A stretch of DNA of 64,000 nt from sequence record OR352939.1; one strand, given 5' to 3'. The notes under the pieces were generated by a model that was given only the letters and a program-made list of their open reading frames with translations, was not told where the DNA came from and made no database searches. The position numbers and the translations under genes are program-made. This document shows positions 33,318 through 38,474 of the stretch, piece after piece (the stretch's first letter is position 1; the number at the start of each line of letters is the position of its first letter). This DNA is from Escherichia phage AV109.

Positions 33318-33497
33318 TTATGCAACAACCTTTCCAAAACGAGAAGCATCATCTCGAAGAACTGCACGTGCTCTGCGCATGATCTTCTCAACGGTTTGAT
33401 TAATACGAGAGTTCGACCCACGCTTGTATCCAGCGCGTTTAGAGGTACCATCAACTTTCTTTTCAACTGCTTTCTTTGCTTTAGCTTGTTTTGCCAT
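33318..33497 (-). CDS. small basic protein (59 aa, Lys/Arg/Ala-rich)
   Basis: below ORF-track cutoff; AT-rich third codon positions, unlike the overlapping 61-aa track ORF in another frame; weak SD AAGAG. Confidence 0.4.
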   Translation of the reverse strand: MAKQAKAKKAVEKKVDGTSKRAGYKRGSNSRINQTVEKIMRRARAVLRDDASRFGKVVA

Positions 33498-34423: not shown

Positions 34424-34720
34424 TTACATAAGAAGCAAACGTTCTACCGGAGTACCATCAACCGAAATTACTTTATCAAGGCGGAAAGAACGCCACTGAC
34501 CTAACTCGGTATCGAATGCTCGAACTGATTCACGAGGTTCAGAACGAACTTCTGTTGATGGGTTACTATTTTCATATTTGACTTCAAGTTCGTCGCGGGA
34601 AGCAAACATCGTACGAACATCACCGTTAGCCTTTTCAAATACAACACAATGAACGCCTACAGACAGAATAGTTTTAATACATTCACGAAGAACCATAGTT
34701 TCTTGTTCAGTTAAAATCAT
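34424..34720 (-). CDS. hypothetical protein (31.1-like position)
   Basis: ORF track starts at a GTG at 34732; the ATG at 34720 overlaps the cd stop. Confidence 0.5.
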   Translation of the reverse strand: MILTEQETMVLRECIKTILSVGVHCVVFEKANGDVRTMFASRDELEVKYENSNPSTEVRSEPRESVRAFDTELGQWRSFRLDKVISVDGTPVERLLLM

Positions 34721-34721
34721 A

Positions 34722-35303
34722 TTATTCACCACAAAAGTTTCGAATTTGTTCCCAATTCAGAGAACGAAGATTATTACGAGAGTACTGAATTACTTCAATA
34801 CCGGCTTTTTTTAGAATGTCTGCCCAATTTTCAGGAGATCGGTCATATAATTCTGCATATACAACCTTTTTAATACCTGACTGTGTAATAGCTTTAGTGC
34901 AATCAGGACATGGAGAAAGCGTCGTATACAACGTAGCACCTTCAATAGAATTACCTTTACGAGCTGCAAACAAAATTGCATTCAATTCCGCATGGATTTC
35001 GTTATTAGCAGACCATGCACTATGAGCGGCCCGATGTTCTTTAGCCAAAACAAAATTATCCACCCGTCCAAATGCTGTAGTGCCTTCTTTATGCCCAGCA
35101 ACGATGACCGGGCTTGGTTTATTCTTCAACCAACCATTTTCGGATGCATGTTCGCAACAGTTTGTACCACCTGAAGGAGAGCCATTATAACCTGTAGAAA
35201 TAATGCGTCCATCTTTTTCAATGACGGCGCCAACTTTCCATGAACAACATTTTGATTCTTGAGAAATCAGATAAGCAATCTGAAGATATGTGCTAGCTTT
35301 CAT
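34722..35303 (-). CDS. cd: dCMP deaminase
   Basis: 193 aa; zinc-binding HAE...PCxxC motifs (EIHAELNAI, SPCPDCTKAI); same length as T4 Cd. Confidence 0.93.
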   Translation of the reverse strand: MKASTYLQIAYLISQESKCCSWKVGAVIEKDGRIISTGYNGSPSGGTNCCEHASENGWLKNKPSPVIVAGHKEGTTAFGRVDNFVLAKEHRAAHSAWSANNEIHAELNAILFAARKGNSIEGATLYTTLSPCPDCTKAITQSGIKKVVYAELYDRSPENWADILKKAGIEVIQYSRNNLRSLNWEQIRNFCGE

Positions 35304-36295
35304 TATTGAACCTTATTAATATAAGTTAACAGCTCTTTAGTTTGTTCCCAACTGATGCACGCATCGGTAATGGAAACGCCATAGGACATATTATCAGAAA
35401 TTTTTTGATTTCCTTCATGTAGGAATGATTCTATCATAATTCCTTTGACCAAATCATTAGCTGCTAAATTTTTACCAATACCAATTTGATTGCTATAATG
35501 CCCATCAGCGTTTGCATGGCTACAGTCAACCATTACATAATGATTCAGACCTACTGCCCTTGCTTTGTTAGAAGCTTCTTGAATATCAGAAGAATGATAG
35601 TTCGGGCCGTTAGTCCCGCCACGCAATACGATATGCGTATTCTGATTACCTTCAGCTTCAACAATGCCTACAGTACCATCGACGTCCATACCCATATACC
35701 GATGAGGCCGCGCGGCACTATACATCGCGTCTGTAGCTACTTTAATAGAACCATTGGTTGCGTTCTTGAAGCCTACGCACATCGGTAGACCTGAAGCAAT
35801 TTCACGATGTGTCTGACTTTCAGTCGTACGGGCGCCAATAGCAACCCATGAGAAAATACCAGAAAGATACTTAATCGTGAATGGGTCTAATACTTCAGTT
35901 GCTAATGGAAGTCCCATACGTAGAAGTTTACGACACAATGTTCGTGCAACTATAAGACCGTGGTTCATATCAAAACTTCCGTCAAGATATGGATCATTTA
36001 CAAGACCTTTCCAACCTACGGTAGTTCGAGGCTTTTCAAAATAAACGCGCATCACTAACAGAACATTAGGAAGACGAGTTTGAAGTTCAGCCAGACGTTT
36101 GCCGTATTCAACAGCAGCAATAGGGTCATGAATTGAACAAGGACCTACAACAATAAGTTTGCGTGGGTCTTCACCGTTCATAATCGAATTAACTTGTTCG
36201 CGATGAGAAGCCACTTGTGATGCGTAAGCTTCCGACAAAGGAATAATCTCAGCCAGTTCTTTTGGAGAAATAAGTTTTCTGACGACAGGTAACAT
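35303..36295 (-). CDS. class I 3-deoxy-D-arabino-heptulosonate-7-phosphate (DAHP) synthase, AroG/AroF/AroH family
   Basis: 330 aa; long stretches identical to recalled E. coli AroG (GPCSIHDP, RVYFEKPRTTVGWKG, AIGARTTESQ, LRGG, SHAN, ESxLxEGNQ, SITDACI); SD AAGGA; stop overlaps the cd start. Confidence 0.92.
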   Translation of the reverse strand: MLPVVRKLISPKELAEIIPLSEAYASQVASHREQVNSIMNGEDPRKLIVVGPCSIHDPIAAVEYGKRLAELQTRLPNVLLVMRVYFEKPRTTVGWKGLVNDPYLDGSFDMNHGLIVARTLCRKLLRMGLPLATEVLDPFTIKYLSGIFSWVAIGARTTESQTHREIASGLPMCVGFKNATNGSIKVATDAMYSAARPHRYMGMDVDGTVGIVEAEGNQNTHIVLRGGTNGPNYHSSDIQEASNKARAVGLNHYVMVDCSHANADGHYSNQIGIGKNLAANDLVKGIMIESFLHEGNQKISDNMSYGVSITDACISWEQTKELLTYINKVQ

Positions 36296-36415
36296 AACAA
36301 TCCTTAGGAGATATAAACAGATTCTGATTCAACAATACCTTTAACCGGATTAGACAGGCTAAGTTGGTAGTGCTCAGATTTATGACCATTCTCGATAGTA
36401 ATGAGATAGCTCTCA

Positions 36416-36652
36416 TTATAGTGTTCCATATACTCGAGTTGCTTCAACAAGACCATCACTGCCTAATTTAAGATTAGTAATTTGGTCACCATCTTTAGGA
36501 TTAACGATTATGAGAAAAGAACGTGGAGATTCTTGAATAACTCGTAATGTTGCATCCTGGAAACGTTCAGACACTTTATTGATGAGTGCTTGAGCAAATT
36601 CTTTTACTTTAATCTGAAATTCGTGTACTGTAATTGGATTTTCACTTAGCAT
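36416..36652 (-). CDS. hypothetical protein
   Basis: 78-aa ORF behind an early promoter and conserved leader ATGAGGAAATCGAA. Confidence 0.5.
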   Translation of the reverse strand: MLSENPITVHEFQIKVKEFAQALINKVSERFQDATLRVIQESPRSFLIIVNPKDGDQITNLKLGSDGLVEATRVYGTL

Positions 36653-36678: not shown

Positions 36679-36708
36679 ATCATAACACAACTCTACAGTG
36701 TTGTAAAC
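36679..36708 (-). promoter_or_regulatory. T4-type early promoter (-35 GTTTAC, extended -10 TGnTATGAT)
   Basis: repeat-family promoter upstream of the 78-aa gene and DAHP synthase. Confidence 0.5.

Positions 36709-37387: not shown

Positions 37388-37388
<1 letters not shown>
37197..37388 (-). CDS. hypothetical protein
   Basis: 63-aa ORF overlapping the pseT stop. Confidence 0.45.

Positions 37389-38474
<1,086 letters not shown>

Follow-up and report, generated by a model that had tools for sequence, protein, structure and literature searches.

The DNA analysed here, a window of 64,000 nucleotides from Escherichia phage AV109 (OR352939.1), holds on its minus strand a gene for a DAHP synthase. 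This enzyme catalyses the flux-controlling step of the shikimate pathway, which feedback inhibition closes in bacteria. A sequence-only reading of the window had proposed that the phage protein starts later than bacterial AroG, that it cannot be extended upstream and that it might for this reason be feedback-insensitive. The gene and its start site are made up as follows.

35303..36295, minus strand: the DAHP synthase gene (type Iα, DAH7P synthase), an open reading frame (ORF) of 330 aa plus a TAA stop.
36293..36295, minus strand: its start codon, ATG; the first residues, MLPVVRKL, align with AroG 9-16 and AroF 10-17.
36301..36305, minus strand: a Shine-Dalgarno sequence, AAGGA, 5 nt 5' of the ATG.
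36296..36331, minus strand: the in-frame stretch 5' of the ATG, with 11 sense codons and a TGA at 36329-36331.

As translated from the ORF in the window, the protein has the N-terminus MLPVVRKLISPKEL. The start context on the minus strand reads TGA ATC AGA ATC TGT TTA TAT CTC CTA AGG ATT GTT ATG TTA CCT GTC GTC, and a search of the 11 in-frame codons 5' of the ATG at 36293-36295 for ATG, GTG or TTG found none. The only rare table-11 starts among these codons are ATT and ATC, both without a ribosome-binding site, and the peptide that the codons would encode (IRICLYLLRIV) lacks the N-terminal motif of the bacterial enzymes, which is described below. The preceding ORF ends at a TAA (36306-36304) that overlaps the AAGGA box. 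In Escherichia phage AV114 (OR352944.1; Straboviridae, Tevenvirinae, Mosigvirus), in which the region is 100% identical, GenBank gives the identical start. The claim that the start cannot be moved upstream therefore holds, with the closed frame, the Shine-Dalgarno sequence and the GenBank start all in agreement.

Phage residue n corresponds to AroG n+8 and AroF n+9, an offset on which HMMER alignment to PDB chains and MAFFT agree. The estimate of about 7-10 missing residues was accurate, since AroG 1-8 (MNYQNDDL) and AroF 1-9 (MQKDALNNV) are absent from the phage protein; hydrophobic equivalents are retained just downstream, at L2 (AroG I10/AroF I11) and V5 (AroG I13). The extent of this shortening was assessed in 31 phage-clade proteins (seven GenBank phages plus P0001-P0023 and P0040) and in the 97 closest bacterial homologues (AroG, AroF and 95 others, ~50-54% identity, several phyla). 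The conserved Pro (AroG P19) is preceded by 8-12 residues in 31/31 phage-clade proteins and by at least 16 in 97/97 bacterial ones. In bacteria, the segment that the phage proteins have lost holds a conserved motif, T-(E/D/N/Q)-(N/D)-(L/V/I)-x-(V/I); in the form (D/E/N)-(D/N)-(L/V/I)-x-(V/I), at AroG 6-10, it was found in all 97 bacterial homologues and in none of the 31 phage-clade proteins, and AroG position 7 is D or N in every one of the 97.

The same aligned start (MLPxVExLxSP) is seen in Enterobacter phage Entb_45, Edwardsiella phage PEi26, Erwinia phage Virsaitis27, Serratia phage X20, Klebsiella phage phi1_146055 and Proteus phage phiP4-3. In these six phages (Kanagawavirus, Winklervirus, a Klebsiella phage, Bragavirus), only 3-8 in-frame codons separate the start from a stop on its 5' side, and in other lineages the orthologous starts come after comparable boxes, AAGG, AAGGA or GGGGA. 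A longer ORF was thus rejected, as the in-frame upstream codons here and in the six lineages offer no usable start. Only phiP4-3 has an extra ATG, 3 codons upstream, with which its N-terminus is still short. Judging from these alignments, the short start is a conserved character of the clade and no accident of one genome.

By its sequence family, the protein is unambiguously a metal-dependent DAHP synthase of type Iα. It matches PF00793 (DAHP_synth_1, Pfam) over residues 36-323 (E=1.3e-75, 254 bits against a cutoff of 25.5). Its best sequence match in the PDB is E. coli AroF (6AGM, E=2e-105), with further matches to N. meningitidis DAH7PS (NmeDAH7PS, E=3e-95) and AroG (1KFL, E=6e-92). Identity in MAFFT alignments is 50.8% to AroF (over 329 residues) and 47.4% to AroG, the reference AroG and AroF sequences being 100% identical to PDB 1GG1 and 6AGL. 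An AlphaFold2 (AF2) model built on a 30-sequence alignment has a mean predicted local distance difference test score (pLDDT) of 90.4 and a predicted template-modelling (TM) score (pTM) of 0.91. In Foldseek it superposes on 4HSO, 1GG1 and 1KFL with TM 0.94-0.95 and a root-mean-square deviation (rmsd) of 1.7-2.0 Å. The (β/α)8 barrel is present, and so is the Iα-specific β6a/β6b hairpin (model strands 198-203 and 209-214), which aligns without gaps to AroG 207-223. The alignment to AroG/AroF and the structural model, both of which the sequence-only reading had put forward as checks, thus fixed the residue offset and returned a native-like fold.

The catalytic apparatus is intact. The metal ligands of AroG are C61, H268, E302 and D326, and the residues that bind phosphoenolpyruvate and erythrose 4-phosphate (PEP/E4P) include R92, K97, R99, R165, K186 and R234. 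In all, 13 catalytic or metal residues were checked in AroG numbering, from a list based on the AroG structures and on PMC9529685. C61, R92, K97, R99, E143, G163 and A164 are present and invariant in 31/31 phage-clade proteins, and so are R165, K186, R234, H268, E302 and D326. The phage enzyme is therefore predicted to be catalytically competent. As a separate observation, phage residues 115 and 119 correspond to AroG R124 and K128, which are taken to be tetramer-interface positions in AroG and NmeDAH7PS. They vary within the phage clade, the R124 position being G, E, S, Q, R or I (Ile in the phage here), and the quaternary state of the phage enzymes, dimer or tetramer, may be different.

In NmeDAH7PS, the allosteric machinery of the Iα type has been described as an N-terminal extension plus a β-hairpin, located where the tight dimer meets (PMC4735112). 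The main chain of the inhibitor is bound by Q151/Q152 and S180/S181 (AroG/AroF), S180 being 'conserved across the species', a D155 salt bridge stabilises the inhibitor site, and AroG becomes feedback-resistant upon P150L (fully so), S180F, D146N, F209A/S or V221A (PMC9529685). AroG D6 and D7 are part of the Phe site in 1KFL, and the variants D6G-D7A, D6L-D7P and D6P-D7I, obtained by saturation mutagenesis, beat the classical S180F in Phe resistance (PMC6520568). As for AroF, replacement of P148 or of Q152 has rendered it Tyr-insensitive, and so has the loss of Ile11 by deletion (PMC5791370, PMC10729320).

These studies bear directly on the sequence-only reading. Its statement that the N-terminal segment contributes to the Phe site agrees with the fact that the part lost in the phage protein includes the equivalents of Asp6 and Asp7 (PMC6520568). 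Its further statement that N-terminal deletions relieve inhibition stands in part: the AroF Ile11 deletion and the AroG D6/D7 substitutions speak for it, and a literal truncation was not found in the literature searched.

The N-terminus is only one side of the matter. A structure-blind scan of 329 aligned columns, for those at least 90% conserved in each group yet holding different residues in the two, returned only six: P150I, Q151K, D155G, S180P, F209Y and T223A (AroG numbering). Five of the six are among 14 published inhibitor-site or feedback-resistance positions, i.e. 146, 147, 150, 151, 155, 175, 179, 180, 202, 209, 211, 212, 214 and 221 (PMC9529685), a concentration with a hypergeometric P=3.8e-7. 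The other, T223, probably faces the same pocket as V221, judging from strand periodicity, since V221A is feedback-resistant and T223 follows V221 by two residues in the same β-strand. The codons concerned are these.

35870..35875, minus strand: I141 and K142 (AroG P150 and Q151), in a motif DPFTIKYL where AroG has DMITPQYL.
35858..35860, minus strand: G146 (AroG D155), replacing the salt-bridge residue that supports the inhibitor site.
35783..35785, minus strand: P171 (AroG S180/AroF S181), replacing an inhibitor main-chain contact.
35696..35698, minus strand: Y200 (AroG F209), at a feedback-resistance position.
35654..35656, minus strand: A214 (AroG T223), in strand β6b, two residues after V221.

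The two groups are sharply separated at these positions. Residue 151 is Q in 97/97 bacterial homologues and K in 30/31 phage-clade proteins, and residue 180 is S in 96/97 of the former and P in 31/31 of the latter; among the 32 aligned sequences with Pro at 180, residue 151 is K in 30, R in one and H in one. The six new residues (I, K, G, P, Y, A) are each fixed in 97-100% of a clade whose members have diverged to ~56% identity. The charge of the pocket has turned from acidic to basic, with D6, D7 and D155 lost, K142 gained and the invariant R127 left without a partner, a change that would be unfavourable to an amino acid's α-ammonium group. The allosteric residues are thus far from fully retained, as P150, Q151, D155, S180 and F209 have all been replaced. 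Going by the alignment, the truncation is part of the change only, and perhaps not its main part, the pocket itself being rebuilt.

Taken together, these findings are probably best explained by an active type Iα DAHP synthase in which the feedback site for aromatic amino acids has been dismantled and the active site left untouched. The N-terminal lid is missing, a segment that contributes Asp6 and Asp7 and that in the tight dimer closes over the inhibitor bound by the other subunit. The polar anchors of the inhibitor main chain are replaced (Q151K, S180P), a supporting salt-bridge residue is lost (D155G) and residues of the hydrophobic wall are altered (P150I, F209Y, T223A). Since several of these changes fall at positions where single engineered substitutions give resistance, Tyr, Phe and Trp are predicted to be unable to switch the enzyme off. 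The feedback-insensitivity anticipated by the sequence-only reading is in this way supported as a prediction, on the strength of both the lost D6/D7 segment and the replaced pocket residues.

Several points weigh against this explanation. The phage protein retains D146, P147, L179, V221 and G211, the last being the Tyr-type residue, as well as the β6a/β6b hairpin and, in the β0 region, the equivalents of AroG I10 and I13; owing to these kept residues some ligand binding may conceivably persist, and the Lys at AroG 151 could pair with a carboxylate. The inhibitor site forms only in the dimer, and the AF2 model is that of a monomer. Our literature search on phage DAHP synthases found no assay of any enzyme of the clade. 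A further point is the conservation of the site itself, whose 15 positions have a mean pairwise identity of 0.88 within the phage clade against 0.66 for the whole protein, much as in the bacterial set (0.83 against 0.60). Being conserved within the clade, the site is not drifting as an unselected one should, and simple loss would account for this no better than a new function under constraint.

The alternative that survives best starts from this last point. The pocket would have been re-tuned to another effector, for example an anionic or phage-relevant metabolite, or to another allosteric logic such as activation, with host aromatics no longer the regulators. The near-fixation of I, K, G, P, Y and A in so diverged a clade, the higher conservation of the site than of the protein, the kept hairpin of the allosteric machinery and the acidic-to-basic shift all speak for it, and the new residues may be conserved because the pocket has acquired a new ligand. 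However, no candidate ligand is known, and the stretch AroG 143-186 also holds active-site and dimer-interface residues, which could by themselves explain the conservation. The new residues, which adjoin active-site loops and the dimer interface, may also be structurally required, filling the pocket and locking the active conformation by analogy with the bulky S180F and P150L; Pro180 and the bulkier Ile and Tyr do resemble the pocket filling of these engineered enzymes. On balance we consider a re-tuned pocket unlikely. More doubtful still is a bolder pair of ideas, namely that the pocket, through the loss of three acidic groups (D6, D7, D155), the gain of Lys142 and the freeing of Arg127, has been re-purposed as an anion-binding sensor of a phage-relevant metabolite, or that the phage protein acts as a lid-less subunit in mixed dimers and de-regulates host AroF/AroG/AroH, which is conceivable because in the tight dimer each lid works in trans.

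That ordinary feedback inhibition persists, most likely by Tyr, with the shortening and the substitutions as neutral features of the lineage, is improbable. The closest solved relative is indeed the Tyr-sensitive AroF, with which the phage enzyme shares the Gly at AroG 211, D146, P147, L179 and V221 are kept and AroF Ile11 has an equivalent in L2. Nevertheless, every published polar main-chain anchor is gone (the D6/D7 equivalents, Q151 and S180), single changes at several such positions suffice to make AroG or AroF resistant, and the changes are concentrated in the site far beyond chance, as the P value above indicates. Finally, a decaying or non-catalytic passenger (moron), or a mis-called start hiding a longer protein, might be suspected from the hyperplastic region of T4-like genomes in which the gene lies and from the name 'hypothetical protein' in several GenBank records, but deserves hardly any credence given 13/13 catalytic residues invariant in 31 sequences, presence in 212 phage records, a confident AF2 model that matches the native fold, a good Shine-Dalgarno sequence, a frame closed within 3-11 codons in every lineage checked and 11 upstream codons here devoid of the bacterial motif.

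The distribution of the gene indicates that it has long been part of phage genomes. A tblastn search found it in 212 phage records, 139 of them at no less than 95% identity (Mosigvirus-type), with 77% in Kanagawavirus, 67-70% in Winklervirus and Klebsiella phages and 58-59% in Proteus Bragavirus. Every lineage checked has the pseT-...-DAHPS-cd synteny, and so do metagenomic members of the clade, of which even the divergent P0020 and P0022 lie in T4-like contexts (rnlA-alc-pseT-DAHPS-cd, with a Phage_T4_Y05Q domain). Recent capture from a host was considered and rejected, as the gene has the G+C content of its phage flanks and its product is only 51% identical to host AroF. From these two features it can be concluded, on compositional and alignment grounds, that the acquisition is old and that the gene was taken up long ago by T4-like phages of enterobacteria. 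A distant DAHP synthase of 387 aa is encoded by Aeromonas phage HJ05 (OQ594355.1, 1399..2562), which has a 79-kb, non-T4-like genome. With 37.5% identity by tblastn (38% in the MAFFT alignment), a long His-/Lys-rich N-terminal extension, Pro at AroG 180 and His at 151, it looks, from its sequence, like a separate acquisition whose site is non-canonical in another way.

A wider view of the family came from an exhaustive HMMER search of 1.84 billion cluster representatives, which yielded 150 relatives, of which 145 (50%-identity clusters) were analysed after 5 fragments had been set aside. The N-terminal motif and the Q151 plus S/T180 pair were both kept in 63 of these, both lost in 62 and discordant in 20 (odds ratio 39, Fisher P=1.3e-19). 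Because they are kept or lost together across the 145 representatives, this co-variation supports the notion of a single functional unit made up of the lid and the polar anchors. The same comparison disposes of the idea that the site changes are unique to phages, since about half of these nearest representatives, including Pseudomonas, Aeromonas and Collimonas paralogues, lack the canonical site as well, and S180P and Q151K recur in bacterial site-divergent paralogues. As far as sequence comparison can tell, the phage clade is one more instance of a recurrent evolutionary outcome rather than a unique invention. As a side observation, the family includes representatives of 600-800 aa, such as P0121 (799 aa) and P0122 (730 aa), that are double the normal length, some of them with the DAHP synthase domain twice or with a fusion to another domain of 350-450 residues.

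Around the DAHP synthase gene, which is flanked by small cd.x-like ORFs downstream of pseT and by cd, the locus holds two genes of note.

34722..35303, minus strand: cd (dCMP deaminase), whose start overlaps the DAHP synthase stop.
37388..38287: pseT (polynucleotide kinase), with the cd.x-like small ORFs and the DAHP synthase gene downstream.

The place of the gene, between the cd.x genes on the pseT side and cd, is one that we take to be the cd.1 position on the T4 map. A TAATG at 35301..35305 (minus strand) joins the stop codon of the DAHP synthase gene to the overlapping ATG of cd, and from this overlap the two genes, one for an aromatic-pathway enzyme and the other for an enzyme of nucleotide metabolism, are probably translationally coupled. 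A scan for σ70-like promoters and terminators around the DAHP synthase gene, aimed at a dedicated promoter, gave no more matches than in shuffled sequence. One σ70-like match lies at 36679..36707 (minus strand), upstream of a DUF7320 gene (TTTACA, a 17-nt spacer, TATGAT and an extended -10 TG), and this predicted element, in a region where the match count is not above that of shuffled sequence, could drive cd.2-DAHPS-cd transcription.

Directly upstream of the DAHP synthase gene is a 51-aa ORF (36304..36459, minus strand; a 41-aa version in GenBank), which overlaps the 3' end of the full-length DUF7320 (cd.2-like) gene at 36416..36652 (minus strand) and is itself a borderline match to Pfam DUF7320 (28.7 bits, cutoff 27), confined to the domain's C-terminal half. 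Recombination that inserted the synthase gene may have left this ORF behind as a truncated paralogue; BLASTP of this ORF against the neighbouring DUF7320 protein gave no alignment. Two names in the AV114 record look wrong, '1,4-alpha-glucan branching enzyme, GH-13-type' for a 59-aa Lys-rich ORF (33318..33497, minus strand) and 'tail fibers protein' for the ORF at the T4 gene 31.2 position (34424..34732, minus strand).

A role during infection can be proposed for an enzyme with a dismantled feedback site. As an early gene from a nucleotide-metabolism cluster, coupled to cd, it would keep carbon flowing to chorismate in the infected cell after host gene expression has stopped, whatever the aromatic pools, provided that it is active in vivo. 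What it yields would be aromatic amino acids and possibly precursors of folate or quinones. The benefit could be a supply of aromatic amino acids when phage proteins are made in a burst, or else chorismate-derived folate for the chemistry of the phage's own dihydrofolate reductase (DHFR), thymidylate synthase and dCMP hydroxymethylase; the close relative APCEc01 has both frd and td. The only published mentions that the literature search found are in genome papers that note the domain or count the gene among auxiliary metabolic genes (PMC8022965, PMC11845039). Regulation is discussed in neither, and in the case of a Kanagawavirus the listing came with the idea of amino acid supply (PMC11845039).

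Among known enzymes, regulated bacterial ones offer close parallels. E. coli AroF (Tyr-sensitive, 6AGL/6AGM) has the same fold and β6a/β6b hairpin, the same residues for catalysis and metal binding and likewise a Gly where Tyr/Phe specificity is set, whereas the phage enzyme lacks AroF residues 1-9 (including N8), carries P151->I, Q152->K, D156->G and S181->P, has a C-terminus ~17 residues shorter and shows two small internal deletions. Its model is close to E. coli AroG (Phe-sensitive; TM 0.95 and rmsd 1.9 Å to 1KFL_A, solved with Phe). The top structural match is NmeDAH7PS (Iα; 4HSN, 4HSO; TM 0.94, rmsd 1.8 Å), which is Phe-inhibited and has the full N-terminal extension, of which the phage enzyme lacks the first part.

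Compared with engineered AroG (D6G-D7A, P150L, S180F, Q151 variants, F209A), the phage enzyme naturally combines changes at positions that engineers alter singly. The differences are that its changes are natural, multiple and clade-fixed, that the new residues are I, K, G, P, Y and A and not L, F and A, that the D6/D7 segment is deleted and not substituted, and that its resistance is a prediction. We know of no engineering attempt that combines the lid deletion with the I-K-G-P-Y-A set.

Also comparable are uncharacterised bacterial paralogues, for example from Pseudomonas, Aeromonas and Collimonas (clusters P0123, P0125, P0126 and P0131), which like the phage enzyme lack the N-terminal D/N motif and are non-canonical at 151 and 180, but which have other residue combinations and mostly keep D155 and a long N-terminus, none having the full I-K-G-P-Y-A. 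In phenazine biosynthesis, the short-form type II DAH7PS (PhzC-type, P. aeruginosa; PMC6435475), reportedly a special-purpose paralogue that has shed allosteric elements, may be a functional analogy only, as it is of type II and not Iα, bacterial and of another architecture, with non-homologous regulatory elements.

What would this mean for phage biology? If the enzyme is naturally feedback-blind, there would be a clear mechanism for an auxiliary metabolic gene so far only listed in genome papers, by which a host pathway of seven steps would have its one point of control overridden by one phage gene, and this in lytic phages as widespread as Mosigvirus, Kanagawavirus, Winklervirus, Bragavirus and Klebsiella phages. 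Should the pocket instead be re-purposed, or mixed dimers form, the outcome would be a virus-evolved rewiring of allostery at the entry to aromatic biosynthesis. An evolution-tested feedback-resistant Iα enzyme would also be at hand for the production of aromatic compounds. For the family at large, the co-retention of the N-terminal motif with Q151 and S180 would offer a simple sequence rule predicting which uncharacterised Iα paralogues are regulated.

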